This document shows, piece by piece, positions 10,405 to 52,168 of a stretch of DNA of 64,000 nucleotides. The position numbers and the translations under genes are program-made. The number at the start of each line of letters is the position of its first letter. Position 1 is the first letter of the stretch. Below the pieces are notes generated by a model. The model had not been told where the DNA came from. It did not search any database and worked only from the letters and a program-made list of their open reading frames with translations. Origin of the DNA: a virus; IMG/VR virus record IMGVR_UViG_3300047160_007939, positions 1-64,000 of that record. One strand, given 5' to 3'.

Positions 10405-10447
10405 TACCTAACTCCCGTGGTGGGTGGCGCAACTTCTACGGGGCGGA

Positions 10448-32129: not shown

Positions 32130-35100
32130 TTAGGCTGTCATCGAAGTGTAAAGGGGCGCATACATGATGGTGTTGTTCACGTTCACCTTCAGCCAGCCCT
32201 GCACCGTACCGGGCGTGGCTTTCGTGGACGCAGCCCCGAGCGCCGGATGCGTACCCGCCGCCTGATTGAAGCGGAAGATCGCCGCGTCCGTGATCGTGAC
32301 GTTGGTGAGCGGAGTTGGCGCTTCGAGGTCGATGTAGTTGTGCCGCGTTACCGTCTGGGCAGCCGCCGCACTGTATCCAGGCCGGAGTGTCAGCGCGCTC
32401 GCGTAACCGTCTGCCGGCGAGGTCGTAATCGCCGCTGTCTCCTGGACGTGGAGCATCATTGCCGGAGTAGCGTTCCCTACCCCGACCCAGCCACCGTTGT
32501 CGTTCAGGATGATAGAACCCTTCGCTCCCGCTGTGCCTGCTCCAGCTCCGGCAAGCCCGCCACGGATGAGGACGTTCGCCCCGTTGCCGTTGGTCGTTGA
32601 ACCTGCTCCACCAGCCCCAGCGGTGATGTTGACGGCTCCGCCGATGGCTCCGGTAACCGCTGCGCCGCCGCCGCCTCCGGCTCCCGCTGTGAAGGTGAGC
32701 GCGCCGCCCGCCGATCCGACGTTCGTGCCGCTGTTGACACCACCCGCTCCGCCGATGAAGCTGCCGGCTCCGCCCACGCTCCCGCCCACCGAGTTCCCGC
32801 AGGTGATTGGAATTGCTCCGCCGGCTCGAACCACGCTGCCGTCACCCCCGGCTGCGCCGGCAGTGATGGTCACCGTGCCGCCAGCTCCACCGCTGGCGAC
32901 CGAAGATCCGGCTCGCCCGAGGAGACTGGCTCCGCCGCCGGCTCCACCGGAACCGGTTCCACCGACGCCAGCCGGCCCGCCCTGAAGGGTAGCCAGCCCA
33001 CCGGTTCCGCCGCCGGTGACACCCCCCACACCCCCAGCACCAGCAGTGAGGGTGATCGCGCCGCCGTTGCCGGCTACCTGCTGCGCGCCGGTCCCGTTGC
33101 TCTGATCGCCGCCCGCTCCGGCAGTGATCAGAACCGCGCCACCACCCCCGGCGTTGTTGTTGCCCGAGGTAGCGCCGGAAGCCGCGCCGCCTTTACCGAT
33201 GGTGAGGGTCCAACCGCCGCTGCCGCCGCCGGTGTTGTTGCCGGTCCCGGCAGTGGATGCCGCACCACCAGCCCCACCGGTCCATACGAACGCGCCGCCA
33301 GCCCCACCCTGCGCGTTGCCGGTATTGTTGTTGGCTGCGCCTCCTACCCCGGTCGTGCCGCTGAAGGATCCACCAGCTCCCCCTGTGTTGTTGCCGGAAG
33401 TCGCTCCGGTCGCCGCGCCACCTGCTCCGCCTGCGGCGCTCCAGGCGCTGCCTACCCCACCGATATTGGCTCCAGTCCCGGCAACCGTCGCCACACCTCC
33501 AACGGCAGGCGTAAACACCCAGCCGCCGGCTGGACCGCCCGTGGAAGAGACATCCGCATTCGGAGCTGTACCCGCCTGGGACCCCCAGAAGGTGATAGGC
33601 GCACCCGAGTTGGCAACCACCGTGCCGGTTTCCGCTCGCGGCCCTGCGCCGCCACCGGTGATGTAAAGAGCTGCCGAGGCAACGTTGCCGACCCCGATCC
33701 CGCACTTGATCTGGATGCTGCCGCCGCCACGAGGCACGCTGCCATCGCCGCCTGCGTCTCCGCAGAAGAGGATCAATCCGCCGCCGGCTCCACCGCTGCC
33801 AGTCGTGGAACCTCCCGCAGCACGAGCGTCGATACCTCCTCCGGCGCTGCCCACCGTTCCCGCTGCGGGTGCGCCCCCGCGCAGGTAACACATCCCGCCG
33901 ATATTGGTTTGCCCGGTGCTGTTCCCTGTGCCCGCCGTGCCACCGGACATGGTGACATTGCCGCCGTTCCCTCCGACCAACACCCCGCTGCCGAGGCTGG
34001 CCGCGCCACCTATGCCGCCGTAGAGCATGATCTGCCCGCCAGCACCCCCGGTGTTTGTGCCGCTCGATGCGCCGGAAGCCGCTCCGCCCGTGCCCCCGTA
34101 AGCCTGCCAGTTACCACCCAGCCCACCGGTGTTGGTTCCCGTACCAGCAACCTGGGCCGCTCCGCCTGTTCCAGCAGTCCAGGAGAACGGCCCTCCCCCG
34201 CCGCCGGTCGATGCGGTCGTTGCATAGAGCGCCTGCCCGCCGGCAGCCTGGATGACGTAAACCTGCCCGCCAATGCCACCGATACCCGTGGTAGCGATGC
34301 TGGTATTTCCACCACGGCCCGTGAGCGCATTGTTCAGGCGAAGGTAATCCTGCTGGGTCGTAGCCGGTGTCGTCGCCACGTCCGCTGGATTGAGCGCCTC
34401 GATCCGCAGCGCCGGGGGAGTGCCGGCTCCCGAAGCCAAGTTGATTGCCACCCCGCCGCTGATCGGGTAGAGCACAAGCTGACCGTACTGGCTCACCGAG
34501 AGGTCGGCATACTGCGTTCCGGCTGCCTGGGAGAGCCGGAGCTGCGGGTTTACCGCATCCACCACTTCGAGCGCCCTGGCCGGCACGCCGGTCGTGTTGA
34601 TACCCACCATCCCACCGGACGGCAGGATCCGCAGCATCCCGGACGATCCGGTGTAGAGGTCCGTGTTATGGGTCGCATCGTAGGTGAGCCGTGCCTGGGG
34701 GTTGCCGGTGCTGTCGAGCACCTCCAGAGCGCGCGTGGGCACGGTCACCGGCGCGGAAGCCGGCGGCATGTTCACGCCCAGCTTGCCGCTGGTCGCGTTG
34801 ACGACCCCGTTCCCACTGCTATCAACCTGGAATGACAGGCGCTGCGCTGCGGTGGTATCGTAGTCCAGCACGAGCTGCGGGTTGCCGCCAACACCCTGCC
34901 CACCGACCTCCAGCACCCCCTGGTTGGGAGTGAGGTTGATCCCGAGCGCGCCGGGTGTGCTCCCTGTGCCGACCGAGTTGACCTGCGCCTTTCCGCTGTT
35001 GTTGGCGATGAAGTCGAGGTAGGAAACGTCGGTGGTGTTGTTAACCCTGAATGCCGGCGTGCCGGCTGTTCCGCCTCCCTGCGCCTGGAGCGCCGGGCCG

Positions 35101-39935: not shown

Positions 39936-40289
39936 CTACTCCTGCCGGATAAACGGTCCCCTGAAGGTCGGCTGCGGATCGGGCCGGCCAGCCGGCTCCG
40001 CCTCCACCGGCTTCGACATCATCCCACCGGGAGCTGCCCTCGGCTGCCAGTTCGGGTCGGGCACGAAGGCCGGCCCTGCCGCTCGCGGCGCAGGAGCGCG
40101 TGGAACCCGGTACTCTCCGCCGAAGGAGCGCGCGTTGACTGCCTGGGGAGTGATCACCCCATCCTTCTCCTGCATCGTGTGGAGAAGCCCGCGCGACCGG
40201 CGCATCTTGTCGCGGTTCCAGCTCCTCTGGTCCACCTTCGATGCGCCGCCTCCGCCGAGCAGCGCCCTCAATCGTTCCTGCGGTGTCAT
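39936..40289 (-). CDS. hypothetical protein
   Basis: ATGA overlap with portal stop. Confidence 0.5.
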   Translation of the reverse strand: MTPQERLRALLGGGGASKVDQRSWNRDKMRRSRGLLHTMQEKDGVITPQAVNARSFGGEYRVPRAPAPRAAGPAFVPDPNWQPRAAPGGMMSKPVEAEPAGRPDPQPTFRGPFIRQE

Positions 40290-42334
40290 TCGTCCCTCGG
40301 AGAGATGCGAACCGTGCAGCGGTGCAGGTTGTATCCGGCTGCTACCCCAGCCTCAAAGGACTTTCCGAACGGCTTCTTCGGCTTGCCCGGCTTGCCCGGC
40401 TTGCCGGATCTTCCGGCTGGGCCGGCTGGCCGGCGGGCTTCCTCCTGCTTCTGGCGGAGCAGCGAGGCGTCCTCGGCCATCGGGATCCGCATCACGGAAG
40501 CTTCCCTGTCATCCGCCTGGGCATTCTGCCGCTGGAGCTGCATTTGCTGCTCGTTGTCGGCCATCTGCTGCATCTGCTGCTGCGCGCCCTGCTGGTTCGC
40601 CTGCTGCATCTGGTTGTCCGCGTCACTCTGGCTCTGGGCCATCTGGCCCATCTCACCCTGCGCCTGCTGCGCCGCACCCAGGTTGTGATCGCTCGCCCAT
40701 ATCTGAAGCATCCCCGGATTGCCTGCCGGCGCGTCCGCGTAGTCGCCCAGCTCGCCACCCATGTCGGAGTAGGTCTTCAGCACCGCCTCCTGGCGCGCTT
40801 CCTCGGTGGCAAACCACCGCTTCGTGTACTGCTTCCTGATGGCGTTCCAGAGCACGATGTCCTTCGGATCGTAGACCGGCGGCAGATCCCGCAGCGTCCT
40901 GATCTGGTTCATCGTGTAGCCGTTGGCGAGCCGCTCGGCGTCGAGCTGCTGCTCCAGCAGGTACGCCGGGTCGTAGTTGCTCTCCAGGCCCTGGACCACC
41001 AGCTCGAAGTCAGGATTGATCTTGGTGACGACGTTCTTGGAAAAGAACTGGCAGAGGAAGAGCACCTTCGGGATAAGCCCTTTGTGCTGGCTCTGCATAA
41101 AGGTGCTCTCCGGGTCGGGCATCTGTAGAGCCGAACTCGGCCCTCCGAACCCGGAGAACCCGAACTCCTCGGGAGCAATCTGGAAGACGGCTGCGGTGAG
41201 CGCCACGCAGAACTCGATGTAGGCCCTGAAGACCATATCCATCCGGGCGCGATCCATCATCTGGACCCACTGCGCGCCGGAGACACCCTGGCCGGGAGGC
41301 GTCCGCAGGACGGGGAACTTGTACTCCCCGCCGACCATAAATCCTACATCCTGGGTTAGCAGTTGCTGCAAACCATCGAGCTGGTCTTTCCCGTAGTGCC
41401 CGATGAGGTTCAGGATGCCGAACGGGATGTGGCTGTCGGTGAAGTAGTCCTTATTGTGGCGCACGGCGTAGATGACGCCCAGCACCGCATCGAGGCACTG
41501 CTGCACCTCGCTCTTGCCGTAGCCGAAGGAGGCGAAGTCGGTACGAGGATTGCGGATCCCCATGTCGCCTTCGTCCCACTTGTACTCGCGCACCACGCCC
41601 CAGTACGAGGTGGGATCGAGCATCGCGTAGACGATCTGGCCCGCGAGGTCGGGCCGCATCTTCGGCACGTACTCCTGGCTGTCCACCTTTCGCATCAGCG
41701 CGCCGTCTTCGGCAGCGAAGAACATCACCGGGTTGTCGCGCTTGCCGGCGATAGGGATGGAGCCTTCGATGCTGATGAAGATCCGGTCGATCACCAGCAT
41801 GTCCAGGATGACTTTGCGAAGGCAGGTGTCGAAACTGTCGGCTTTTCTCCGGTCGTGGCTGTCCCACACTGCCGGCTCGCCAGTGATCGGGTTCTCGCGC
41901 AGGATGCCGCCGTGCCGCAGGATCAGCTCGATGCGCTTCGCTTCGTTGGCCGCTGGCTCGGTCAGCTCTTTCTGCCGGTCGCGCTGAACCACCCGCATCC
42001 CGATGGCATTCTCGTGCGCGGGTTCGCGGAAGTGCGCTACAATCTGGTTTACCAGGGTGAAGAGAACCGCCTGGATGACGAGGTTCTTGTCAGCGAGGCG
42101 ACGGAGCAGGCTCGGCTCCAGGTGGGGCGTCTGGTCGTCCAGGATGCCGCTGTGGGTACGGGAGTAGCGGCGGATCTGGTCGTAGCGGCGGTCAGGGACC
42201 CAGCGAGGGCGAAGACCCCCGCCGGCTGCCTTCATCATCTGCTCGGCATAGGCAGCGAGCGCCTCGGTGGGCTGCCCGCCCGTGCCGACCATTCCCTGAT
42301 CGAACAGGCTTCCGCTGACGGCCAGCGGTGGCAT
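40286..42334 (-). CDS. portal protein
   Basis: 682 aa; IRNPRTD..GYGKSEV, NKDYF..GIL, AVFQIAPEEFGF, TMNQIR motifs; Gln-rich tail. Confidence 0.85.
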   Translation of the reverse strand: MPPLAVSGSLFDQGMVGTGGQPTEALAAYAEQMMKAAGGGLRPRWVPDRRYDQIRRYSRTHSGILDDQTPHLEPSLLRRLADKNLVIQAVLFTLVNQIVAHFREPAHENAIGMRVVQRDRQKELTEPAANEAKRIELILRHGGILRENPITGEPAVWDSHDRRKADSFDTCLRKVILDMLVIDRIFISIEGSIPIAGKRDNPVMFFAAEDGALMRKVDSQEYVPKMRPDLAGQIVYAMLDPTSYWGVVREYKWDEGDMGIRNPRTDFASFGYGKSEVQQCLDAVLGVIYAVRHNKDYFTDSHIPFGILNLIGHYGKDQLDGLQQLLTQDVGFMVGGEYKFPVLRTPPGQGVSGAQWVQMMDRARMDMVFRAYIEFCVALTAAVFQIAPEEFGFSGFGGPSSALQMPDPESTFMQSQHKGLIPKVLFLCQFFSKNVVTKINPDFELVVQGLESNYDPAYLLEQQLDAERLANGYTMNQIRTLRDLPPVYDPKDIVLWNAIRKQYTKRWFATEEARQEAVLKTYSDMGGELGDYADAPAGNPGMLQIWASDHNLGAAQQAQGEMGQMAQSQSDADNQMQQANQQGAQQQMQQMADNEQQMQLQRQNAQADDREASVMRIPMAEDASLLRQKQEEARRPAGPAGRSGKPGKPGKPKKPFGKSFEAGVAAGYNLHRCTVRISPRDE

Positions 42335-42365
42335 AGGAGAACCTAACTCCCGAACGATTGATTAA

Positions 42366-42791
42366 CTACTGAACCCGCTCGTAGCGGCCCACGATGTCCA
42401 TTGTCCCGGCAGCCATCGTCATCACGCGAAGCGCGTGCCGGTAACCGGGGTATGCCGCAGTTCGGACGACCTGCCTGCCCCCTACGGTGAGGGTCACGGT
42501 GTCGGCGAGCATCTCCACGGCAGCCCCTGCGGGCACGAGGTTCGTCTGCTGGCCGGCTGGCGGGATCAAGCCGGTGGTAGCGTCCACCATGATCTGGGAG
42601 AGGTCGTCGTTTCGGATGAGGCACAATTGTAGCGTGGCACTTGCGCCTCCGGCGAGGTTCAGCTCCCAGACACAGCTATCGTAGAGCGAGTTGGGCGGCA
42701 GGTAGCGCGCAGGCGAAAGAAGCGCCGGCAGCGCCGCGTCCGCGCCCATCCCCGTTCCCAATCCCCGCCTGGGTCCGACTAGCCTCGCCAT
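42366..42791 (-). CDS. hypothetical protein
   Basis: GGAGG RBS; precedes portal. Confidence 0.55.
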   Translation of the reverse strand: MARLVGPRRGLGTGMGADAALPALLSPARYLPPNSLYDSCVWELNLAGGASATLQLCLIRNDDLSQIMVDATTGLIPPAGQQTNLVPAGAAVEMLADTVTLTVGGRQVVRTAAYPGYRHALRVMTMAAGTMDIVGRYERVQ

Positions 42792-42800
42792 CGCGCCCTC

Positions 42801-43055
42801 CTAGATCCCGAAGGGATTGTTCCACCGCTTCTTCGGGAGCACGCTGGGATCGCCCTGCATCGCATCCTTCAGCCCCGTCGTGTGGACGTGCTTCTGGAAG
42901 TGGCCGGGAATGAGCACCTGGACCTGCTTCGGGTCGAAGTTCCGCAGGACGATGCCTCCGCAGGCGCAGTCGTCCGGGTCGTTCCTCGTCGCAAACGACC
43001 GGCGCGCTTCACTCTTCTCCCCGCAGCCCTGGCACTGGTACTCGTAGACTGGCAT
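42801..43055 (-). CDS. FmdB-family zinc-ribbon protein
   Basis: MPVYEYQCQGCG..CACGG signature. Confidence 0.75.
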   Translation of the reverse strand: MPVYEYQCQGCGEKSEARRSFATRNDPDDCACGGIVLRNFDPKQVQVLIPGHFQKHVHTTGLKDAMQGDPSVLPKKRWNNPFGI

Positions 43056-43229
43056 ACTCCCCCACGAAGAACGTCGGCACGCTGGGCCGGCTGGTCCATG
43101 AATGCCGAAGGCCGGGAGAGCTTTCGCCCTACCCGGCCCCGGTTCCTCGCGCGCAAGTCGCGGCAGCCTGTTTACGCTTCGACTTGAAAGGTCGCTGTAT
43201 GTATGCTATCCGCTGTCAGGGCGCGCTTG

Positions 43230-43340
43230 AAAAGGATCCCGGCGTAGCATTCTCCACTGGTCTGTCTGCCGCGCAGACCCCTGGTGGGGCATCGCCGGGA
43301 AAATGGATCTGTTCAGTCGGGTCTTCACCCGACCTCGGTC
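43230..43340 (-). ncRNA. candidate small structured RNA
   Basis: Promoter TAGACG-N18-(TGc)TACACT at 43376-43347; hairpin GTCGGGT-GAAG-ACCCGAC; long stem CCCGGCG...CGCCGGG then U-tract; no convincing ORF. Confidence 0.45.
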
Positions 43341-43373
43341 GTCAGTAGTGTAGCACAGCCGGCCAGCCGGCGT

Positions 43374-43721
43374 CTACCGCATCTGCGCGCCTCGGAAGTC
43401 GGTGCGAAGCGCCGCGCTCTTGAAGCCGGCATCCTCCATCGCTTTCTTCAGGTCGCCTGCCGTGCCCTGGAACCAATCGCTGCGCCACTTCCCCGGCCAC
43501 TGCGCCATAATCGGCGTGTCGTCGGGCAGGTAGCAGACATCCAGCGGACACTCGTGGACCTGAACCTGAACCTGCCCGCCGTCGCTAACGAATGCCAGGA
43601 TCGGGTTGTGGACGAGGCTCTCGTATTTCAGGATGCCGCTCTTCACCCAGAAGTCTTCCGTCATTCGCCTGCCGAATGTGCGAACACCGATCAGGCGGTT
43701 CTCCTTTGCTACCTCGATCAT
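43374..43721 (-). CDS. hypothetical protein
   Basis: TGATG coupling; coherent ORF. Confidence 0.55.
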   Translation of the reverse strand: MIEVAKENRLIGVRTFGRRMTEDFWVKSGILKYESLVHNPILAFVSDGGQVQVQVHECPLDVCYLPDDTPIMAQWPGKWRSDWFQGTAGDLKKAMEDAGFKSAALRTDFRGAQMR

Positions 43722-44023
43722 CAGCTCTTCTTGCTCCTCTCCTCGTTCGCGTGGCCCTGCTGGATCAGCTCCTGCACCCGCCGGCCACCCACCTTCCCGA
43801 TGCGACTGTAGTAATCACGGCCCCGCCGCTCGGCCACGGTGTTGCCGCCCTTCTGCCCGATCTGGGAGTAGAACTCCATCCCGTACCGCTTCTTCGTAGT
43901 CGCGCCGCCGCGCTTGCCCATCTCACGGAAGCCCTCGTGCCCCAGCTCCTTCAGGCGCGCTTCTCCGCCCAGCCTGCCAATCTCCCTCATGGTCAGCTCA
44001 CCCGCCGGCTTCTCGTCACTCAC
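43721..44023 (-). CDS. KGG-repeat general stress protein (GsiB/YciG-like)
   Basis: EIGRLGG, EMGKRGG, QIGQKGG, RIGKVGG repeats; AAAGGAG RBS. Confidence 0.8.
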   Translation of the reverse strand: MSDEKPAGELTMREIGRLGGEARLKELGHEGFREMGKRGGATTKKRYGMEFYSQIGQKGGNTVAERRGRDYYSRIGKVGGRRVQELIQQGHANEERSKKS

Positions 44024-44041
44024 GCTTGCTCTCCTTTCACG

Positions 44042-45097
44042 TCAAACCAGCACTACTTTGGTGTCTACCCCCATTGTAGCGACAGTCTGCATAGCAGTCA
44101 ACCACGGCTCGATGAGGTCCACGAGCTGCCCGGCAAGAGCCTCGCGTCCCAGCTTCAGGCAGTCGTTCCAATCCATCCCCTCGGGCGGAGACAGGCGCAT
44201 CAGCTCGCAGCCGTGCTCCCGCAGCTCCGTACCCCAGCGGTAACCGGCCACGTTCCCCGCCGAGATGCCGCGCCGGTCAGGTCGGTCGTTGTCACTGGCT
44301 ACCAATACAGGCTGATGGGCCAGCTTCTCTCCCACCCACTCCGCGAGGTGGCAGCCCATCGCGGCAATGGCCGGGTAGCCGGCTGCCGCAAGCGAGAGCG
44401 CGTCGATGGGTCCTTCCACGAGGATGGTCGGTTTACAGCTCCACGCCTGGACCGCAGAGAAGACGCCCAGGCGGGCTTCACCCCTGGTTCGGGTCTTCGG
44501 GTACTCCCCGTCGAAGTAGCGGCCCTGCACGGCCACCAGGACGCCTTCCCGGTCGCGGATGGGAAAGAGCACGGCAGGCCGGCCATACCAGTCGGGATGA
44601 TAGCGAACGCCCGATGGCTCACAGTCTCCAACCATCAGCCCCCGCCGGATGAGATAGGCTTCGCCTTCGGTTCCGGCTAGGTGGACTACCTGCCGGAGCT
44701 TCTTGCGCCAGTCATCGCTCTTCTGGTGCGGTTCTCTCGTAGGAGACGGCTCGCTTTGCCCGTTCGGTTCTCTCGGCAGCAACGGCTCGCTCATTGAGCG
44801 CGGTTCTCTTGTACCTCTCGGCTCGGGCGGAGCGTCGTCATCGGTCAGGTACGTATCCGGCCTGGGCCTTCGCTGCCGGCGCGGACGAAAGACGCGGCTG
44901 TGCCAGTCCTGCCCGTCGAGGCGTCCTTTCGTGTGGCAGCGGTGGCAGATGTACTCGCCCGTCTCCATCTTCACCGCGAGGGAGCGATGGGCGCTGTCCT
45001 TCCACTTGCTGTCCCCGCAGAACGGGCAGCAGAAGCGCCGCTCGTACTTCTGGAGCGGGGCGTGCGGGTCGTAGGCTTCCAGCTCTTCGATTGTCAC
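44042..45097 (-). CDS. DNA primase (Zn finger + TOPRIM)
   Basis: CPFCGD..CHRC zinc finger; LVEGPIDALS and DND TOPRIM motifs. Confidence 0.8.
   Translation of the reverse strand: MTIEELEAYDPHAPLQKYERRFCCPFCGDSKWKDSAHRSLAVKMETGEYICHRCHTKGRLDGQDWHSRVFRPRRQRRPRPDTYLTDDDAPPEPRGTREPRSMSEPLLPREPNGQSEPSPTREPHQKSDDWRKKLRQVVHLAGTEGEAYLIRRGLMVGDCEPSGVRYHPDWYGRPAVLFPIRDREGVLVAVQGRYFDGEYPKTRTRGEARLGVFSAVQAWSCKPTILVEGPIDALSLAAAGYPAIAAMGCHLAEWVGEKLAHQPVLVASDNDRPDRRGISAGNVAGYRWGTELREHGCELMRLSPPEGMDWNDCLKLGREALAGQLVDLIEPWLTAMQTVATMGVDTKVVLV
44711..44827 (-). repeat. TIGR-like dual-repeat array (3 x 36 nt) inside primase linker
   Basis: + strand CGGTTCTCT / CGGCTCGCT alternating every 18 nt with unique 9-nt spacers. 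Confidence 0.8.
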
Positions 45098-45432
45098 GTC
45101 ACCCGCTCCGGTTCTACGCGGCTGATTGCCAGCCGGATGACCTCGGTGACCGTCTTGATCGCCGTCTGCTGGGCTTCGTCAATGTCTTTGCCTGCCTGAT
45201 TGAACGCTGCCACATCCATCTCCGGGCGGATGAAGAGCGGAACCCAGGCACGATAGTCTACCAGGACCGAAAGTGCCTGGAAGAGTTCCGGCAAGCCGTC
45301 CATCGCGTAGTGGTCTGCCTCGTCCCCCATCTGACAGAGACGCTTCGGCCACGCATCGACTTCCGGCATCAGGGTGTCAATGAAGGCGCGCTGCTCTTCC
45401 ATCGCGCGCCGGTGAAGCTCGTCGTCGGTCAT
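45094..45432 (-). CDS. hypothetical protein
   Basis: ATGA overlap; coherent ORF. Confidence 0.55.
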   Translation of the reverse strand: MTDDELHRRAMEEQRAFIDTLMPEVDAWPKRLCQMGDEADHYAMDGLPELFQALSVLVDYRAWVPLFIRPEMDVAAFNQAGKDIDEAQQTAIKTVTEVIRLAISRVEPERVT

Positions 45433-45650
45433 CGAAGCAGCCTCTTCGCTTCCTCGGTGACGGCTTCCGCCACCCGCTCGATGGCTTCCCGGTACGCCTT
45501 CTCGCCTAACTCCCGCCGGAACCGGTAGTTCCACAGCCCACCCAGGTCCTGAAGAATGGTCGCCATCGGCTCGTCGCCTGCGACTTCCGCGTACTCCCCC
45601 AGGTCACCCAGCCGCTCTCCCAGGCTGCTGTTCACGTCGATGGTCGTCAC
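45429..45650 (-). CDS. hypothetical protein
   Basis: AAAGGAG RBS before GTG at 45650. Confidence 0.5.
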   Translation of the reverse strand: MTTIDVNSSLGERLGDLGEYAEVAGDEPMATILQDLGGLWNYRFRRELGEKAYREAIERVAEAVTEEAKRLLR

Positions 45651-45939
45651 CCGCGCTCTCCTTTCTGTTCCTCGCCCACCGCGCATTGTCTCTATCGCGC
45701 TTACAATCCAGGCAGGTGGTGGACACCCCGCCCGCGTAGTTTCGCCGGTCCTTACTGAACTCATCCACCGGCTTGACTTTGCCGCAGTGGATGCAAAGAC
45801 GGTCGGTCAGCTCGCCGCCGTTCGTGAGCGCCTCTTCCGCCACCTGCCGGAGACGCGCTACTGTAGGATAGCGGAGCTGGAGTATCCGGTGCAATGCTAC
45901 CTGATACGTCCGCTCGCGCTTGGCTCCTTCCCCTCGCAT
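45604..45939 (-). CDS. zinc-finger protein
   Basis: CIHCGKVKPVDEF..CLDC motif of the kind found with endonuclease VII-like proteins. Confidence 0.5.
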   Translation of the reverse strand: MRGEGAKRERTYQVALHRILQLRYPTVARLRQVAEEALTNGGELTDRLCIHCGKVKPVDEFSKDRRNYAGGVSTTCLDCKRDRDNARWARNRKESAGDDHRREQQPGRAAG

Positions 45940-46487
45940 AGATGCTCCTCAATCTCGGAGCGTGATAGCTCAATCACCTCCAGGCTTGCTCCGTACTCTT
46001 CCAGGACCTTCAGGCCGTCCTTTGGCCGGTTGTCTTCGAGCACCACCAGGGTTGAGACACCGCTCTGCATAATCAAGAGCGCGCAGGCCATACACGGCTG
46101 GCCGGAGACGATGAGCGTTCCGCCCTGGTACTCACTGAAGTTGCCGAAGATGAGCGCGTTCGCCTCGGCATGGATGCAGCAGGGATGCGCCGCGAGACCG
46201 AGGCCGCGCGGGAGGTTCTCACGGTAGCACGTCGCATCATTGCACGCGCCCCGTGGCTTGCCATTCCGACCGGTTGTGACTACCCTACCAGCCACATCCA
46301 GAACGACTGTTCCGTACTGTGCCCTCGGGCAATTACTGATACTCCCAACTGCGAGAGCTACTCGCATCCACCCGACGAGGTGTTCGCGTCTTCTCGCTGC
46401 CGCCTCTGGACGGCAGTCCGACCCTCCATCCAGTAGCTGTGCTTTCGGTCTCTCTGACACTGCAAGCAATATCGCTTTGTCTTCCAT
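45897..46487 (-). CDS. dCMP deaminase
   Basis: HAEANAL and PCMAC zinc-binding motifs, GRNG; start uncertain (46487 or 46367). Confidence 0.85.
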   Translation of the reverse strand: MEDKAILLAVSERPKAQLLDGGSDCRPEAAARRREHLVGWMRVALAVGSISNCPRAQYGTVVLDVAGRVVTTGRNGKPRGACNDATCYRENLPRGLGLAAHPCCIHAEANALIFGNFSEYQGGTLIVSGQPCMACALLIMQSGVSTLVVLEDNRPKDGLKVLEEYGASLEVIELSRSEIEEHLCEGKEPSASGRIR

Positions 46488-46864
46488 CTGTAGGTGTTCT
46501 TCTCGGTGAAATCATGCCCGTTAACGCAGTGTGTCTGCGCTGCCTGCCGCGCTGCAAACGTCTCTCCGCGCAGAATGTTGGTCCGGTGATCAACCGCCTC
46601 CAGGTGCTCGGGATTTACACAGGCCCGTGTTCTACACAGGTGATCCACTTCCCAACCGGGTGGGATAGGTCCGTTCCATACCAGATGAGCAAACCGCGAA
46701 GCCGGGTTCTTCCGCCCCGACCAGTAGAATTGCCCATACCCGGTGTGCGGCAGTATCGTGCCCAACCACGGCCAACAACCGCTCTCGTCCGCGCCGACGC
46801 GAGCGAGGAAGCGGATCAGGTCTTCCTCACTCACGTCAGCTTCGCAGCGTGACTGCGAACTCAT
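46358..46864 (-). CDS. HNH homing endonuclease
   Basis: GCWPW..GYG..EVDHLCRTRACVNPEHLEAV..N; C-terminal THCVNGH..CLQC. Confidence 0.85.
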   Translation of the reverse strand: MSSQSRCEADVSEEDLIRFLARVGADESGCWPWLGTILPHTGYGQFYWSGRKNPASRFAHLVWNGPIPPGWEVDHLCRTRACVNPEHLEAVDHRTNILRGETFAARQAAQTHCVNGHDFTEKNTYRWKTKRYCLQCQRDRKHSYWMEGRTAVQRRQREDANTSSGGCE

Positions 46865-46865
46865 C

Positions 46866-47522
46866 CTACGCAGCCCTCGCCTGCTGCCGCTGGCAGCCGG
46901 GACACATCGGCGCTCCGAACGCTCTCATCGAGACATCGTGCTGGCCTTTGTTCAGGGGCTTGCCGCAGCCCGGTACGCTGCACACCATCGCCGGTCGCGG
47001 GTCCTGCTGGTCGGCTCGCTGGCCGAAGGTTGCCGCTCCCACGCGCCGCTCCCGCTCCTCACGGCTCTGCGACTGTGCCGGCTGGCCGGCTGGCTGGCCG
47101 CTCCTCTGGCCGTGGAAGCCCTGCTGCTGCTGCGGCTGCCGCCGGTCGCTGGCTCGCTCCGGCGGGGCATCGCTGTCGTCCATCCCCTCGCCGCCGTCAT
47201 CGTCGTAACCGCCGCCCTGCGGGGTCCACGCATCCTGCCAACTGTCCGCTTTGTAGAACAGCGTGCCGTTCCCCTCGCGGTAGATGCCGAAGTTGCATTC
47301 GTGCGCGTTCGTACCGTCGCCTTCCTGCCCGACACACTTCAGGCCGTAGTAGTCGTAGCCCTGCGGCTGCCGGTGGAACAGGTAGACCGAAGCCCCGCAC
47401 AGGGGACACTCGGTCGGGAGCTGGGTCCAGAAGGACATCTGCTCAATGAGGTCCCGCTGGTGCTCGGCAGCTACCTGGATCGTCAGGTCGCCGACCTTAC
47501 AGCTTGCCGTAATCGTCGCCAC
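46866..47522 (-). CDS. zinc-binding protein, possibly ssDNA-binding or recombination
   Basis: GGAGG RBS; N-terminal Cys domain, acidic/Gln linker, C-terminal CSVPGC..CPGC ribbon. Confidence 0.5.
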   Translation of the reverse strand: MATITASCKVGDLTIQVAAEHQRDLIEQMSFWTQLPTECPLCGASVYLFHRQPQGYDYYGLKCVGQEGDGTNAHECNFGIYREGNGTLFYKADSWQDAWTPQGGGYDDDGGEGMDDSDAPPERASDRRQPQQQQGFHGQRSGQPAGQPAQSQSREERERRVGAATFGQRADQQDPRPAMVCSVPGCGKPLNKGQHDVSMRAFGAPMCPGCQRQQARAA

Positions 47523-47539
47523 TCGTCATCACCTCCAAC

Positions 47540-47620
47540 AGAAAAGAGAGCCGCGATGGTCGAGCGCCGACGCCCGGCCACTCGCGGCCCGACTAACACG
47601 TTAGGGAGTTAGGTATCTCC
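47540..47620 (-). ncRNA. candidate antisense sRNA complementary to late-gene RBS element
   Basis: Starts ~6 nt after TATACT; 5' GGAGAUACCUAACUCCCUA; ends in GCCGCGA...TCGCGGC hairpin + TCTCTTTTCT. Confidence 0.6.
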
Positions 47621-47655
47621 GCCGTAAGTATACCACGTCTTACGGCGAACTGCAA
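47620..47655 (-). promoter_or_regulatory. sigma70-type promoter with overlapping inverted-repeat operator
   Basis: TTGCAG-N17-TATACT; CGCCGTAAG-N10-CTTACGGCG. Confidence 0.75.
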
Positions 47656-47661
47656 GCCTGC

Positions 47662-47991
47662 TTATTCGTGAGGCATCCTTTCCTGCACCAGCCGCTCCCC
47701 CGCGACGTGAAGCAGCTTCGGACGCAGCTTCTCCAGCACGCCCCGCTTTCGCTCTTCCGCGTCCAGCCAGTCGATAGCGATCCGCCCCTCACCCACCACG
47801 CCGGAGAGCATCGACACGTAGTCCTTCGCACCCGCCTCAATGAGCGCCTCGCGGTTCACCTTCAGCCAGTGCTCCAGGAGCGCCATCCCCTGCGCGATCA
47901 CGTCCTGGGGAGCGCAGGGCACGGCCCCGTAGCCGTTCCTGCTGTACCCATTCGAGGTCGGCGCACCCGACGCCTCAATCGCTTCCACCAT
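47662..47991 (-). CDS. hypothetical protein
   Basis: AGGAGGT RBS. Confidence 0.55.
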   Translation of the reverse strand: MVEAIEASGAPTSNGYSRNGYGAVPCAPQDVIAQGMALLEHWLKVNREALIEAGAKDYVSMLSGVVGEGRIAIDWLDAEERKRGVLEKLRPKLLHVAGERLVQERMPHE

Positions 47992-48592
47992 TTCCCACCT
48001 CCTGCGCTTTCTCTATCAGTCGGGCGATGGCCGTGAGCGCCTCGCCCCGCGCTTTCTCCACGAGTACCAGCACCTCTTCCAGTTTTCGGAAGGGTTGCAT
48101 CTCCCAGGCCAGCAGCCGCTGGACGTTGGTCGTTGCGTCTGCTGTTTCCGTGTTAGTAGCGAGCCTCGCAAGTATCCAGACTACATGCTTGGTCAGCTCG
48201 TCGGCATCCCAATCGGTGACCCGGATGTGCTGGACTTCCATCCTGGCGCGGTAGACCGCACCCACGAGGTTCCACTGCACGGCCCGGTCATCGAGTATCT
48301 CTATCGGATGCTTCTTTCTATCTTTAGCATACGCTCCCCGCGACCACTGCTCGCTTAAAGTTGCCTTCATCCAGTTCAGGAGCGCAAGACCGTAGTACGG
48401 CTCGCACCCGTCACACGGCTGCTGGCTCCAGAAGTGATCGGCTACCCCGAAGTTCTCTCGCCCCAGCATCTGCTCGGGAACGAGAGCGGATCGAAAAGTG
48501 AGGTGGCCGCAGGCACACCTCACCAGGATCCTCTCCCGCTGTTCGACAACGGGACCCTCGGGATAGACGCCTAGCGGCAAAGCGTCCACCAT
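47975..48592 (-). CDS. hypothetical protein (DUF6197-like C-terminal half)
   Basis: WSRGAYA..WNLVGAV..WE..RKLEEVL pattern. Confidence 0.5.
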   Translation of the reverse strand: MVDALPLGVYPEGPVVEQRERILVRCACGHLTFRSALVPEQMLGRENFGVADHFWSQQPCDGCEPYYGLALLNWMKATLSEQWSRGAYAKDRKKHPIEILDDRAVQWNLVGAVYRARMEVQHIRVTDWDADELTKHVVWILARLATNTETADATTNVQRLLAWEMQPFRKLEEVLVLVEKARGEALTAIARLIEKAQEVGNGGSD

Positions 48593-48625
48593 TCTGTTAC
48601 CCCAGGCATTAGGCCGGTTAATCCC

Positions 48626-48654
48626 ATTATAGCTCTACCCTAGCCGGCTGGCAA
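48626..48654 (-). promoter_or_regulatory. sigma70-type promoter
   Basis: TTGCCA-N17-TATAAT. Confidence 0.75.
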
Positions 48655-48927
48655 GCCCCACTTACGCCGTACCGTTGCTATGGTGCGCCTCGCTTCGTCC
48701 GCGCTCGGGTAGTGGGTACTCACCCCCACGTCCTGGCACAGCTCCTCGTTGAACTTGAGGAGCCGCTCGCAGGCGTGGATGAGGGAGCCGATGTCCACCA
48801 GTGCCTCGGCAGCTTTCCCCTGCCACGTCTTCGCGTCGTCTCCCTGCACGGCGACCACTTCCTCCAGCGAGCCGGCTGGCCTGGGCCTGCCTTCGGCATC
48901 GTAGAACATATACCGGGTGTCACTCAC
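48640..48927 (-). CDS. hypothetical protein
   Basis: GAGGAG RBS; overlap with upstream gene. Confidence 0.5.
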   Translation of the reverse strand: MSDTRYMFYDAEGRPRPAGSLEEVVAVQGDDAKTWQGKAAEALVDIGSLIHACERLLKFNEELCQDVGVSTHYPSADEARRTIATVRRKWGLPAG

Positions 48928-49478
48928 TCCTCACCTCGCTTCGGCAGCTCCAGGAGCGGGCACGGCATCGTCAGCGGCGGCAGGTGCTCGGCGATGTTGA
49001 ACACCCGCACATGGGGAGCAATCTCTTTCTCCAGCGGCACGCAGACGCCCCAGCTCTGATAGCCGGCGTTGCGCTCCGGTTTGGTCGGGCGCAGCTCGTA
49101 ATCCTTCTCCCACTGCGGCAATCGCTCCCGCAGCCAGCTCGGGTAGAGAAGGTAGATCAGGTCCTTCGTCGGGAGGTAGTAGAGCACCACGTCGGCCTTC
49201 GTCGTGAGCACCCAGCCGTCCTTACCCGTCTGGTCGTTGGAGATAGTCTCCAGGAAAGCGTTGCCGGTACGACAGGCATTCTCATCGCGCTTGTACTCCA
49301 CCAGAGAACGCTTCACGTAGTCCGGTGGCCGGTAGAAGATCCGGTCGATCCCCTGCTTTTGTTGCTCCGTCGTCGCGCGCTCGATCCGCACCTTCTGGAA
49401 GCGCATGAAGAAGTGATCGAGAAAGCCCGCGCTCTCCGCGCCGATGTCGGCGTTCTCATCGAAGGCTTTGCGGTTCAT
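48924..49478 (-). CDS. PD-(D/E)xK-family nuclease
   Basis: QKQGID..VEYKRD..TGNAFLE..GW..TKAD..YY pattern. Confidence 0.65.
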   Translation of the reverse strand: MNRKAFDENADIGAESAGFLDHFFMRFQKVRIERATTEQQKQGIDRIFYRPPDYVKRSLVEYKRDENACRTGNAFLETISNDQTGKDGWVLTTKADVVLYYLPTKDLIYLLYPSWLRERLPQWEKDYELRPTKPERNAGYQSWGVCVPLEKEIAPHVRVFNIAEHLPPLTMPCPLLELPKRGEE

Positions 49479-49726
49479 TCGCTGTCCTTCCTCGGTTCCA
49501 CAGCAGACAGACCGTCCTTCAGGATCTTCCTGGCTGCCGTCATCGCATCCAGGACCACCTCCATCGTCGCCCCGTTGGGTGTCACGGCATTGTTCTTTGC
49601 CAGCACCTCCCAGGCCGCATCGTTGAGCGCCGCAAGCGCCGCCTCACAGGTCGCCGGCAGATGCGTAAGGCATCTCCGTACCGGGGTCTTCTTCGCCTTC
49701 GGCGTCTCCGCCGTTCTCGTCGCCAC
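49475..49726 (-). CDS. hypothetical protein
   Basis: AAAGGAG RBS before GTG at 49726. Confidence 0.5.
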   Translation of the reverse strand: MATRTAETPKAKKTPVRRCLTHLPATCEAALAALNDAAWEVLAKNNAVTPNGATMEVVLDAMTAARKILKDGLSAVEPRKDSE

Positions 49727-49851
49727 TCGGTTCTCCTTTCTGAATACAAACCTCACGGCCTGTGATCAAAGATCCTGACAGCCCTCCGGGTCGAGTAAAC
49801 ACCACGCAGTAGCATCCTGGAGTGACTACCTCTCTTCGGCGGCTGTCAGGA

Positions 49852-49924
49852 TGGGCGCGGCGGGGGTCGAACCCGCACACTACAGCTTAAAAGGCTGTTG
49901 CTCTACCATTCGAGCTACGCGCCC
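49852..49924 (-). tRNA. tRNA-Lys(UUU)
   Basis: Full cloverleaf: GGGCGCG/CGCGCCC acceptor, ACAGC-CTTTTAA-GCTGT, TTCGA loop; no encoded CCA. Confidence 0.95.
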
Positions 49925-49985
49925 TCAAAAGAAGGCAGCCATCGTCGCGCGTAACGAGCTGCCGCCACGGCTCCGGCTGCCTCCA

Positions 49986-50058
49986 CGGTGATGGCGAGGA
50001 TCGAACTCGCACCTCCTGCTCGACAGGCAGGCGTCCACAGCCAGTAGACCACACCACC
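49986..50058 (-). tRNA. tRNA-Asp(GUC)
   Basis: GGTGGTG/CATCACC acceptor, CCTGC-CTGTCGA-GCAGG, TTCGA loop. Confidence 0.9.
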
Positions 50059-50120
50059 ACGAGGCTCCGTTACCCGTCGTCTGCCGTGCCACGGAGCGCA
50101 CAACCCGGCAGTTGAAACGA

Positions 50121-50192
50121 TGGGCCAGGGTGGAATTGAACCACCGACCACCTGTTCATCAGACAGGCACGCGACCGTCGCGCCGCTGGCCC
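50121..50192 (-). tRNA. tRNA-Ile(GAU), atypical (C8, G37)
   Basis: GGGCCAG/CTGGCCC acceptor, CCTGT-CTGATGA-ACAGG, TTCAA loop. Confidence 0.8.
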
Positions 50193-50200
50193 GTAGTAGA

Positions 50201-50330
50201 GGATGGGGCTGGCTACGAGCAGGATGGTTCCAGCCCGGCTCCTGCATTGCGCCGGTACAGTCCGCTTTGTCTTTCGCCCTGGTTAGCTAGGCCGAAGCGA
50301 AGTATCAACCCTCGCTGCACCGCATCCCCC
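50201..50330 (-). ncRNA. candidate structured RNA within tRNA cluster
   Basis: Closing stem GGATG/CATCC, four internal hairpins, complementary loops GCAGGA / TCCTGC. Confidence 0.45.
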
Positions 50331-50333
50331 ACA

Positions 50334-50406
50334 CTGCCGAGGCTGGGGTCGAACCAGCTCACTCCCGCTTAACAGCGCAGCGCCTTTCCAGTTAGGCCAC
50401 TCGGCA
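50334..50406 (-). tRNA. tRNA-Asn(GUU), distorted anticodon arm
   Basis: TGCCGAG/CTCGGCA acceptor, G73, CTGTTAA loop but anticodon stem lacks one base; TTCGA loop. Confidence 0.7.
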
Positions 50407-50875
50407 TAATAATCAGCCCCGCGTGAACCTCGGTGTGGCAGCGATTGCACAGCAAGACACACTTCTTCAGCTCCGCCTCAATCCTCGCCCACGACACCGA
50501 ATAGCGTGCAATCGCAAGCTCCTTCGCCTCGCTATCCAGATGATGAAACGTCAATGCCTGGATGCAACGGTCATAGCCACAGACCACACACTTCTCACCC
50601 TTCAGCGCAACCGCCCTTCGCTTAATCTCTCGCCGCCTACGAACAACATGGCAAGAGGGACACGCTACGTGCGCCTTCCCACTTCTGGACGAGTATCCCC
50701 GCCCGCACAGAGCACACTCCAGCGTAACGCTCTGCCTCCGAAGTAGTCGCCTCGTATTGTGCGCCCCAAAGGGCGAGCAATCCAGACAAAAGCTACGCCG
50801 CTGAAGGTTACGCGCGCGCCCACCCACCACGGCTTTCCAGGGGATCGGCGCGGCACACTTTACACACTGGTTCAT
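50369..50875 (-). CDS. HNH endonuclease inserted in tRNA cluster
   Basis: Zn fingers, then KGEKCVVCGY..ALTFHH..K..ELKKCVLLCNRCHTEVH. Confidence 0.85.
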   Translation of the reverse strand: MNQCVKCAAPIPWKAVVGGRARNLQRRSFCLDCSPFGAHNTRRLLRRQSVTLECALCGRGYSSRSGKAHVACPSCHVVRRRREIKRRAVALKGEKCVVCGYDRCIQALTFHHLDSEAKELAIARYSVSWARIEAELKKCVLLCNRCHTEVHAGLIIMPSGLTGKALRC

Positions 50876-50877
50876 CA

Positions 50878-50952
50878 CGGCGCGTCGAGGCATCGAACCC
50901 CGCTGACCAGGAGTTTTGGAGGCTCCCGCCCACCCAAGCAGGCCCACGCGCC
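50878..50952 (-). tRNA. tRNA-Trp(CCA)
   Basis: GGCGCGT/ACGCGCC acceptor, GGAGC-CTCCAAA-ACTCC, TTCGA loop. Confidence 0.85.
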
Positions 50953-51145
50953 ACGGACGAGGATGGATATGGGAGCGCCAGCGAATAGTCCTGTTCCTGG
51001 CCTAGCATCTGCGCTCTCACGGCACGGGGCCGAGTTGCGTCCACCCTTCGTCAGTGGAGACGGCTCCTGGCTACCGGCGCGACCCACCTACACCCAGCAC
51101 AGGCGGAAGGTGAGAGATGTCCGGTACGGAAGTGCTGTCCGTATC

Positions 51146-51181
51146 CGCCGTTAGTATACCGCACCTAACGGCGAAGCGCAA
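51146..51181 (-). promoter_or_regulatory. sigma70-type promoter of tRNA cluster with inverted-repeat operator
   Basis: TTGCGC-N17-TATACT; CGCCGTTAG-N10-CTAACGGCG. Confidence 0.75.
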
Positions 51182-51185
51182 CCCC

Positions 51186-51521
51186 TCATCTTCCCGGCGA
51201 ACCGGCTACTCCGTGCAAGCGTGTGTAGCGGTGCGCGCTTGTGTCGGGGGGCATCTCGGGCGGCAGCTCCTCGAAGCGCAGCACGTAGGGCGAGAAGCGA
51301 TGGCTCACCTCTACCACCGCGTTCCACCGGTCGCTGGCAATCTCCAGGATGGCGTTCACGATCCGGTCGTGCGGCCAGGGGTCTAGCCGGATGTAGCAGG
51401 GAGCGCCGGGCCGGAAGTGCCGGCGCAGCTTGAGGTTGATCTGGTGGCAGACCTCTTCGAGCACCACGTCGTCGTCATCCGACAGGTGCTCCAGTTCGGC
51501 AGGGCCGAGGATTTCGGGCAT
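51186..51521 (-). CDS. hypothetical protein
   Basis: AAAGGAG RBS; upstream promoter. Confidence 0.55.
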   Translation of the reverse strand: MPEILGPAELEHLSDDDDVVLEEVCHQINLKLRRHFRPGAPCYIRLDPWPHDRIVNAILEIASDRWNAVVEVSHRFSPYVLRFEELPPEMPPDTSAHRYTRLHGVAGSPGR

Positions 51522-51545
51522 CGTTCGTTCTCCTTTCGGTGAAGA

Positions 51546-51576
51546 AGTATAGAACGATGTTTCACTGTTTTGTCAA
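51546..51576 (-). promoter_or_regulatory. sigma70-type promoter (long spacer)
   Basis: TTGACA-N19-TATACT in AT-rich patch. Confidence 0.5.
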
Positions 51577-51860
51577 CTTCTTTGCCGGGCAACCTCGGCA
51601 GCCCTACGCAGCCCGTCTGCGGTCGCCACCTCGACTTTGGCCGTGTCCTCCACGGTGACGCGCAGGAGATTGTCGGTACGCTCCAGGGTCATCTTGTTGC
51701 CGGCTTCGATGGCGATGAAGCGCGGCAGCTTGTCCCCCGGCATCTCGGTGAGCATCTGCTTGATGGGCGCGAGCTGCTCGGGCGACAGGCCAATGGGGAT
51801 CATCTCCCCGGTGGTAAAGCAGAAGGTCACCCGCAGGCGAGGAGGAAGAGGGCCGTTCAC
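51573..51860 (-). CDS. hypothetical protein
   Basis: Coupled ORF. Confidence 0.5.
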   Translation of the reverse strand: MNGPLPPRLRVTFCFTTGEMIPIGLSPEQLAPIKQMLTEMPGDKLPRFIAIEAGNKMTLERTDNLLRVTVEDTAKVEVATADGLRRAAEVARQRS

Positions 51861-52168
51861 TCTTTGCCCTCCGGGAACTTCATCTCGTACTGCTCCGGGC
51901 CAGTCTCGCTCTTCAGCACGCTCGCCTCGCCCACGGGCGGCAGGTTCGGGCTGGCCGGCTCGACCTCGATCAGTTCAGCGGCTCGCCGGATCCAGAGCAC
52001 GGCTGTCTCCATCTCGGTGACGGCAACCGACAGCGCCCGCCCGAGCTGGCCCGGTCCCCGGTTCGCCTTCGTGGTAGCCAGCCGGCACACCATATCGTTG
52101 AGCCGGCCAGCCTGCCATAACAGGTTGGTGCGGAGTTCCCTCGCCTCGGCGTTGGCCTTCTCGGTCAT
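51857..52168 (-). CDS. Acb2/Tad1-like helical hairpin protein (candidate)
   Basis: GRALSVAVTEMETAVLWIRRA resembles R..S.A.T.LE.A..W...A sponge motif; ATGA overlap. Confidence 0.45.
   Translation of the reverse strand: MTEKANAEARELRTNLLWQAGRLNDMVCRLATTKANRGPGQLGRALSVAVTEMETAVLWIRRAAELIEVEPASPNLPPVGEASVLKSETGPEQYEMKFPEGKE

Follow-up and report, generated by a model that had tools for sequence, protein, structure and literature searches.

The window analysed here consists of the first 64,000 bases of the 119,514-base-pair (bp) IMG/VR virus record IMGVR_UViG_3300047160_007939, numbered from the start of the record, and its source is an uncultured soil phage of about 119 kilobases (kb). A short non-coding unit on its minus strand (47540-47655) carries the only exact inverted copy of a 10-nucleotide (nt) sequence, GGGAGTTAGG, that in gene sense stands a few nucleotides ahead of the ATG of six genes, including those for the major capsid protein, the portal protein and a replication initiator. 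This sequence is called the tag hereafter, and its inverted copy the anti-tag. The reading that we favour, tentatively and with somewhat less than even confidence, is that the unit encodes an RNA of ~78 nt that acts in trans, using its 5' loop and arm to pair with the tag and thereby lowering translation initiation, most of all at the portal gene. We infer the existence of this RNA, its timing, its pairing and the sign of its effect from the DNA sequence.

In the proposed mechanism, a σ70 host-type promoter overlapped by a palindromic operator would start a ~78-nt RNA that would end at a strong intrinsic terminator. The first 17 nt of this RNA are predicted to fold in such a way that the loop and the 3' arm would spell the exact complement of GGGAGUUAGG, a sequence taken to span, in the six tagged genes, both GGAG, the Shine-Dalgarno core, and the spacer. 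The loop ACCUAA would contact UUAGGU of the tag, from where pairing could spread to 11-12 bp, and to 16 bp on the portal leader, and the resulting duplex over the ribosome-binding site would lower translation initiation. One RNA could in this way control all tagged genes, which would be translated freely only once the tagged mRNAs exceed the RNA. Part of the transcription would pass the terminator and serve the downstream gene for a protein of 218 amino acids (aa), the unit thus doubling as a leader.

A start tag shared by dispersed genes

The 119,514 bp contain eight exact copies of the tag, seven on the minus strand, i.e., in gene sense, and one, inverted, on the plus strand, and the reversed pattern used as a control over the whole genome gave 0 and 0 matches. 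When one mismatch is allowed, nine matches are found in the window, as compared with 2.91 ± 1.66 in 100 shuffles of which none (0/100) reaches nine. Six of the seven exact sense copies precede an ATG by 2-8 nt, with spacers of 2, 2, 2, 7, 3 and 8 nt for the tube, capsid, scaffold, portal, initiator and 182-aa genes, respectively (Table 1). The seventh lies within a coding region, where it probably arose by chance, and is destroyed in one soil run by a T>G change at 45507. The copies listed in a first-pass annotation of this DNA were all recovered by a pattern search of the window, and its claim of a single copy in opposite orientation withstood the whole-genome search, which gave one exact inverted match, at 47604-47613. 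A second plus-strand copy, with one mismatch, is located inside a 2599-aa gene (34926-34935).

The first-pass annotation had also assigned the tag to the main virion genes. This restriction is contradicted by an exact copy ahead of the gene for an O-like replication initiator, so that the tag is start-associated yet not confined to virion genes. As to the names given to the tagged genes, family searches bear out the capsid and portal proteins, the tail tube is an ESM Atlas lead only, and the labels scaffold and tail chaperone found no family match. PHROGs and Pfam gave no family for the proteins so labelled, nor for the 182-aa protein or either of the two proteins flanking the unit.

The canonical Shine-Dalgarno sequence in its long form reads AAAGGAG, the canonical match to the 16S tail. 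In a crude gene call of our own, made from codon statistics and comprising 135 genes, AAAGGAG occurs within 25 nt of the start in 38 of the calls (one in the structural region, 37 elsewhere), often in the form GAAAGGAGAAC (e.g., at 43721-44023, 49475-49726 and 51186-51521, and in the plus-strand block at 87-106 kb). Start regions of the tag type are found in seven gene calls, six of which belong to the structural region. The tag has a GGAG core, and its TTAGG half is absent from the common AAAGGAG sites of the genome. Because the general form is thus AAAGGAG without TTAGG, the tag is not the general extended Shine-Dalgarno sequence of the phage. The first-pass annotation had named a tag that is simply the extended Shine-Dalgarno sequence of the host as an outcome that would undo its proposal, and this role is filled instead by AAAGGAG at 38/135 gene calls. 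The genome has two classes of start region, the tag type and the AAAGGAG type.

Two further elements were observed near tag copies. About 30 nt upstream of the capsid tag, at 9305-9350, a perfect 13-bp stem (GGGCTTCCCGTGC / GCACGGGAAGCCC) encloses a 20-nt loop and has no U-run; by its sequence it may be a processing or stabilising hairpin. A tag copy with one mismatch, GGAAGTTAGG, is found at about +5 of a near-consensus promoter at 76542-76587 (TTGCCA-N18-TATAAT), and more than 100 nt separate it from the next start.

A candidate promoter-terminator unit carrying the anti-tag

A 109-aa gene (47662-47991) and the 218-aa gene (46866-47522), both on the minus strand, are 139 bp apart, and the exact inverted tag sits in this gap; a first-order Markov model predicts 0.055 inverted copies in the whole genome. 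Read along the minus strand, the gap contains the promoter, a start at ~47620, GGAGAUACCUAACUCCCUAA, a linker, a hairpin that runs into CUCUCUUUUC, GGAGG and GTG. The promoter TTGCAG-N17-TATACT and the hairpin with U-tract described in the first-pass annotation are present in the sequence at this place, and a short non-coding stretch bounded by its own promoter and an intrinsic terminator is what characterises trans-encoded small RNAs. In the window and its two close relatives (see below), one half of the anti-tag is predicted to be in a loop and the other in a weak stem; an open linker and the terminator come next. The unit has no conserved open reading frame, since its sole minus-strand frame (GTG at 47599) is not preceded by a Shine-Dalgarno sequence and varies from 22 to 38 aa across the three sequences. 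The gap is not a repeated element, as judged by blastn against the genome, and Rfam gave four tRNA matches and nothing else in the window, none of them at the unit.

The palindrome that extends across the -10 element and the predicted start occurs at two places in the 119,514 bases, the other being the promoter ahead of the tRNA cluster, and its arms differ between the two in a compensating manner (TAAG/CTTA versus TTAG/CTAA). In the relative L029, the palindrome at the site of the candidate RNA has arms of the tRNA type. These features suggest that the palindrome is probably an operator common to the promoters of the candidate RNA and of the tRNAs. Because the operator is shared with a tRNA promoter, the candidate RNA could be made either early or late.

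Predicted pairing with the tagged leaders

In a blastn comparison, the unit matched the tube, capsid and scaffold leaders exactly over 12 nt in inverse orientation, with different flanking letters in each, and the initiator and 182-aa leaders over 11 nt; on the portal leader the match was 16 nt at 94%, and there the tag and its flank, GGGAGTTAGGTTCTCC, would form 16 bp and one bulge with the 5' end of the RNA. When the first 30 nt of the RNA were set against 136 start regions with duplexfold, the six leaders with an exact tag ranked 1, 2, 3, 5, 6 and 7, with energies between -32.5 and -24.9 kcal/mol, whereas the median was -13.65. An untagged gene (6945-7769) takes rank 4, and the one-mismatch tag at 1338-1347 ranks 11/136. 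The pairings put forward in the first-pass annotation (12 bp on the tube, capsid and scaffold leaders, 16 bp with a bulge on the portal leader) were thus reproduced by both programs, and the genome-wide target ranking that it had called for returned the tagged leaders as the best predicted partners among the 136 start regions (duplexfold). As in trans-acting small RNAs, the seed is complementary to start regions encoded elsewhere, at distances from 5 kb to more than 45 kb.

The portal leader stands out in its own fold. Positions 42335-42351 fold as a mirror hairpin, GGGAG-UUAGGUU-CUCCU, that pairs the only Shine-Dalgarno core of this leader, and the minimum free energy of the 46-nt stretch, a second downstream hairpin included, is -10 kcal/mol; according to this model, the fold alone would keep portal translation low. 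The mirror hairpin suggests that contact would begin between the two loops and that the duplex would then spread. The letters CUAA in the loop of the candidate RNA agree with YUNR, a turn motif in the loops of antisense RNAs. Moreover, the 5' 16 nt of the predicted RNA of the relative L028 are the exact reverse complement of the portal leader of the window.

Conservation of the unit in relatives

The protein collection contains four homologues of the 218-aa protein, and a metagenome scan with an alignment of this protein (A2) yielded six loci. Two of these, L028 and L029, whose proteins share 68% and 67% identity with the 218-aa protein, carry the unit; a third, L030, has only 108 nt upstream. 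L028 and L029 keep the -35, the spacer length, the -10, the first transcribed letters, the 5' hairpin, the 13-nt core and the terminator. Their promoter reads TTGAAG-N17-TATACT and is followed by GGAG plus A or U, the core ACCTAACTCCCTA, the hairpin and CTCTCTTTTC. The terminator hairpins of the relatives have predicted energies of -24.1 and -26.8 kcal/mol, and in L028 the inner half of the hairpin differs in sequence with its pairing kept (-24.1 kcal/mol). RNAalifold found 23 pairs in the three versions, one of them with a two-sided change, and a generic scan listed a promoter (9/12) and a terminator at the unit in both L028 and L029. Over the gap, L028 shares 81% and L029 91% identity with the window, as compared with 78-87% over the two flanking genes, so that the constraint on the gap is no weaker than that on the coding sequence. 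The unit is therefore conserved, with its anti-tag unchanged, in both of the close relatives (2/2).

Other searches gave no further copy of the unit. Against GenBank phages, blastn of 46800-48600 and tblastn of the 218-aa protein each gave 0 matches, and tblastn of the capsid protein found only relatives at ~25% identity, SPO1-like and others. In IMG/VR, single queries with the two flanking proteins and the capsid protein returned no relative, alignment A2 gave none, and the DNA pattern of the unit had 0 matches. A capsid alignment (A1) found 19 loci in IMG/VR at 23-27% identity, in which the capsid leaders carry other sequences, and this distance makes them unfit for a comparison of co-variation. 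Neither alignment matched anything in GTDB genomes. Closer relatives of the capsid protein (P0002-P0011) are 44-71% identical, and one of them (P0011) lies on a 103-kb contig.

Near-identical DNA of the phage is present in 24 listed soil-metagenome runs. Reads or contigs over 41000-52000 were examined in four of them (X16, X20, X23 and X24), which yielded near-identical DNA contigs, and no difference is listed inside 47540-47655 in these four runs, a result of little weight given the thin cover (bin depths 0.5-4.1). One contig of X23 joins 47142 to 48930 via 26 unrelated letters and, if real, would represent a variant that lacks the unit and two neighbouring genes; with a depth of 2 and a short side of 21 it was set aside as unreliable.

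Alternative explanations

Several points weigh against an RNA that acts in trans on the tagged genes. The 24 listed runs that contain the phage are all DNA (24/24) and none is RNA. The duplexfold ranking is partly circular because the tag itself defines the match, and it ignores the structure of the targets as well. In the predicted RNA, CUCC pairs with the 5' GGAG and the anti-tag is half buried, so that opening the 10-mer costs 3.6-5.9 kcal/mol. The RNA of the window also has one extra base, the bulge, in its pairing with its own portal leader, to which it is a poorer match than the RNA of L028. A generic promoter and terminator scan of the window listed neither the promoter of the unit nor its interrupted hairpin, the promoter being missed because its -35 matches at only three of six positions. 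Finally, at 81% identity L028 would contain 13 unchanged bases in a row with a chance of ~0.065; L029, the only other relative, is 91% identical, and the unchanged core alone is therefore no significant evidence.

The features of the downstream gene bear on the alternative that survives best, which we regard as possible but on the unlikely side: the unit would be an attenuator or leader for the 218-aa protein, the HNH endonuclease, the dCMP deaminase and the primase, polymerase starting at the conserved promoter would for the most part end at the terminator, save when it is modified or the terminator leaks, the short RNA would be a by-product as the 6S transcript is in lambda, and its complementarity to the tag would be incidental or secondary. 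The GTG at 47522 has no promoter of its own downstream of the terminator (47548-47590), hence the 218-aa gene depends on read-through and the unit is also its leader. Two distant homologues of this gene, in L032 and L033 (31-43% identity, G+C 52-54%), likewise stand behind a promoter (TTGACG-N17-TATACT), 100-135 nt of structured leader and a hairpin plus U-run, which include no anti-tag, and the promoter-leader-terminator design may therefore belong to the family of the 218-aa gene. These two loci (L032 375-520, L033 1861-2035) agree in their first ~15 transcribed letters and in the start region; a shared start tag was not seen in the L032 contig, and no pairing of its leader stood out. A polymerase-modifying or repressing factor could moreover bind the palindrome that lies between the -35 and the start and that the unit has in common with the tRNA promoter. 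However, the tRNA twin promoter has no terminator behind it, and a search of the 119,514-bp record for the Q-type antiterminator families PF06530 and PF03589 had 0 matches, a weak negative that covers these two families alone. Nor does any RNA pairing compete with the terminator: the alternative pairing of the 5' part with a terminator arm reaches -8 to -10.8 kcal/mol, versus -24 to -27 kcal/mol for the terminator, and pairing of the 5' part with the start region of the 218-aa gene itself only -9 to -11 kcal/mol, neither of which suggests an RNA switch. Attenuation also leaves unexplained why the inverted 10-mer occurs singly, against the 0.055 copies expected, and extends to 12-16 nt on four leaders. 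The attenuator and the trans-acting RNA are compatible, since a leader that terminates early can release an RNA that acts in trans.

Part of the conserved 5' end could be accounted for by the GGAG/CUCC stem alone. This would fit an explanation that we consider unlikely, in which the tag acts without any antisense RNA, as a translation enhancer or as the site of a protein, and the inverted copy is either due to chance or a duplicate of the portal hairpin that was kept as a stabilising 5' stem-loop. A RegA-like translational regulator is an example of a protein that would bind such a tag. Four other exact 12-nt matches between the gap and the genome arise by chance, and two relatives provide thin statistical support. 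As far as the accessible text goes, the start-associated sequences (SAS) of Cluster K mycobacteriophages occur in subclusters for which no inverted copy is reported, and only four K1 phages have one (PMC3203893). What speaks against a tag that works alone is that the unchanged part reaches beyond the stem to take in the loop ACCUAA, then C and UA, that the six independent inverse matches share one 10-nt core and are all located at start sites, and that even one inverted copy was hardly expected in the genome. By far the least probable explanation is that GGGAGTTAGG is the DNA site of a late transcription factor and its inverted copy an operator that closes the promoter of the unit when late genes start, which would suit a site usable in either orientation, a copy at +8 to +17, at which a bound protein would block elongation, and the absence of a distinct late-promoter motif upstream of the tagged genes, but is at odds with the spacing of the GGAG core from the start, which is that of a Shine-Dalgarno sequence (7 nt in three genes), with the sense orientation of every gene-linked copy and with the position of the tag 2-8 nt before the ATG, which leaves no room for a promoter and a leader.

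Comparison with known systems

The closest analogue of the tag is found in the SAS of Cluster K mycobacteriophages, for which the accessible text of the original description leaves the binder as 'RNA or protein' (PMC3203893, Pope et al., 2011). In the accessible parts of two further papers, of 2024 and 2025, the role of the SAS is still called unknown; one of them speculates on the protein gp51 (PMC11373665), and in the other the words 'antisense' and 'sRNA' occur 0 times (PMC12699233). Both the SAS and the present tag are asymmetric blocks that consist of a Shine-Dalgarno core with an extension, lie few nucleotides before the ATG and occur in many copies of the same orientation. However, the SAS consensus is the 13-nt GGGATAGGAGCCC, unlike the 10-nt tag, the SAS mark non-structural genes whereas six of seven tags are in the structural region, Cluster K phages have 11-19 copies as compared with 7-8 here, and no inverted repeat of the ESAS type is found upstream of the tags. 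The present phage is apparently unrelated to Cluster K. With its different sequence and its predominance at structural genes, the tag is an analogue and not a member of the Cluster K elements. In the phage Anaya, a 385-bp non-coding gap separates gp96 and gp97 (JF704106 59682-60066; L037 39683-40067) and contains the single inverted SAS of this phage, with one mismatch (L037 39871-39883), directly behind a hairpin that resembles a terminator. Neither a promoter nor a terminator was listed by the scan around this copy, whereas the inverted copy in the soil phage has a recognisable promoter and terminator.

Phage-encoded antisense RNAs that act on ribosome-binding sites are exemplified by c4, the loops of which pair at the ribosome-binding site of the phage's own mRNA and restrain its translation. 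It is processed from the transcript of the operon that it controls (icd-ant), a single operon involved in immunity. The c4 antisense RNA of phages P1 and P7 is named in the accessible text of PMC12197685. The RNA predicted here would resemble c4 in being a small phage RNA with an exposed loop directed at ribosome-binding sites; unlike c4, the unit has its own promoter and terminator, at least six dispersed putative target genes, no sequence relation to c4 and no Rfam match.

Bacterial small RNAs of the RybB/OmrA and RsaE/RoxS types have 5'-proximal or C-rich seeds that mask Shine-Dalgarno sites. The candidate shares with them a stand-alone unit of ~80 nt with an intrinsic terminator, a short seed with UCCC/CUCC near the 5' end or in a loop, and several targets that have a motif in common. 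It differs in that it is phage-encoded and aimed at the genes of the phage itself, its seed reaches into the spacer motif UUAGG, and no Hfq is encoded by the phage, in which a search for this protein found none.

In phage lambda, the stretch from PR' to tR' yields the 6S transcript, with antitermination by Q. The present unit is similar in its host-type promoter, a strong terminator within ~80 nt, a conserved element between the -35 and the start, and a long series of co-directional genes behind it that ends in virion genes. It is dissimilar in the absence of a match to the two Q families, and in the replication and nucleotide-metabolism genes that lie between the unit and the portal gene. The lambda 6S RNA is not known to be complementary to late-gene start regions.

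Phages time their late genes mainly through transcription. In this genome, host-type promoters are scattered throughout, including a perfect TTGACA-N17-TATAAT, and among co-directional genes with promoters so distributed, restraining read-through messages after transcription until the tagged mRNAs outnumber the RNA would make sense as a timing device. A broader version of the favoured reading, which we hold to be quite doubtful, has a single RNA ruling a regulon defined by the tag (the initiator and four virion proteins), either as a threshold switch of the late phase or as a brake in a quiescent carrier, with the same logic applying to the lone inverted SAS of Cluster K. Within the accessible text of the publications retrieved, a literature search found no single small RNA that reads a start tag shared by phage morphogenesis genes. 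If the proposed RNA exists and acts as described, it would represent a new kind of post-transcriptional master control of phage morphogenesis genes and would give a testable function, one that can be addressed in cultured phage, to the SAS, for which papers between 2011 and 2025 give the role as unknown. Should the RNA be no more than the by-product of an attenuator, an ordinary leader and a start tag would be left. The first-pass annotation had further called the RNA early and suggested a role in dormancy or superinfection, neither of which is supported by anything observed here; no integrase or partition gene was found among the proteins searched (38 of the 135 gene calls, in PHROGs).

Genome context and gene layout

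The ends of the record overlap by 97 bp and its G+C content is 64%. Minus-strand genes run from ~86.6 kb down through the window and then, wrapping around, from 119.5 to 106.3 kb, and small plus-strand genes occupy the block at 87-106 kb. In addition to the genes listed in Table 1, family searches named a small terminase, methyltransferases, a regulator with multiple helix-turn-helix domains, a DnaB-type helicase and a topoisomerase.

Table 1. Positions of the tag copies, the elements of the candidate RNA unit and the genes discussed in the text.
Feature	Position	Strand	Basis or remark
Tag before tail-tube-like gene, 2 nt from ATG	2446-2455	-	exact
Tag before major capsid gene, 2 nt from ATG	9264-9273	-	exact
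Tag before 345-aa gene (scaffold by position only; adjoins capsid gene upstream), 2 nt from ATG	10407-10416	-	exact
Tag before portal gene	42342-42351	-	exact
Tag before ATG of O-like replication initiator	86550-86559	-	exact; outside window
Tag before ATG of late-region 182-aa protein (no family)	108411-108420	-	exact; outside window
Tag copy within coding region	45505-45514	-	exact
One-mismatch tag GGGAGATAGG, overlapping GTG of 229-aa gene after tube gene	1338-1347	-	search with at most one mismatch
-35 element TTGCAG	47650-47655	-	sequence; TTGAAG in L028 and L029
-10 element TATACT, 17-nt spacer from -35	47627-47632	-	unchanged in L028, L029 and twin promoter (51153-51158)
Palindrome, 9-bp arms CGCCGTAAG-N10-CTTACGGCG, across -10 and predicted start	47620-47647	.	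only other genome copy at 51146-51173
Predicted RNA, ~78-80 nt	47541-47620	-	putative 5' end 7 nt past -10; putative 3' end in U-rich tail
Predicted 5' hairpin, stem GGAG/CUCC, loop holding ACCUAA	47605-47620	-	predicted in 3/3 homologues
13-nt core ACCTAACTCCCTA holding anti-tag	47602-47614	-	unchanged in 3/3 sequences
Anti-tag CCTAACTCCC (seed of the unit, CCUAACUCCC), +8 to +17	47604-47613	-	exact complement of tag
Terminator hairpin, 43 nt, -23.6 kcal/mol	47548-47590	-	folding; -24.1 (L028) and -26.8 (L029)
U-rich tail CTCTCTTTTC	47541-47550	-	directly at terminator hairpin
Twin promoter TTGCGC-N17-TATACT with same palindrome, ahead of tRNA cluster	51146-51181	-	no anti-tag
218-aa gene, GTG 47522, GGAGG 47532-47536	46866-47522	-	matches no known family
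Tail-tube-like gene, 326 aa	1463-2443	-	ESM Atlas lead: Phage_tube_2, feature score 0.97, TM 0.71
Major capsid gene	7780-9261	-	phrog_752, E 6.1e-47
Portal gene	40286-42334	-	family search
Primase, HNH endonuclease and dCMP deaminase genes	44-46.9 kb		family search
O-like replication initiator gene, 356 aa	85476-86546		phrog_9773, E 7.6e-31

A profile search of the PDB with alignment A2 gave 0 matches for the 218-aa protein. Its last 41 residues (46866-46991), which contain a CxxC...CxxC zinc ribbon, are 85% identical to the C-terminus of P0020, a 282-aa protein of the Rad52/22 family (PF04098) from metagenomes; judging from these sequences, the zinc ribbon is a shared mobile tail module.

Within the O-like initiator gene, at 86135-86196, a 15-nt palindromic repeat is present in three copies, two of which read GGCACGAAACGTGCC and one of which has one change. 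By their sequence and arrangement, these iteron-like repeats within an initiator gene look like a replication origin, as in lambda O.

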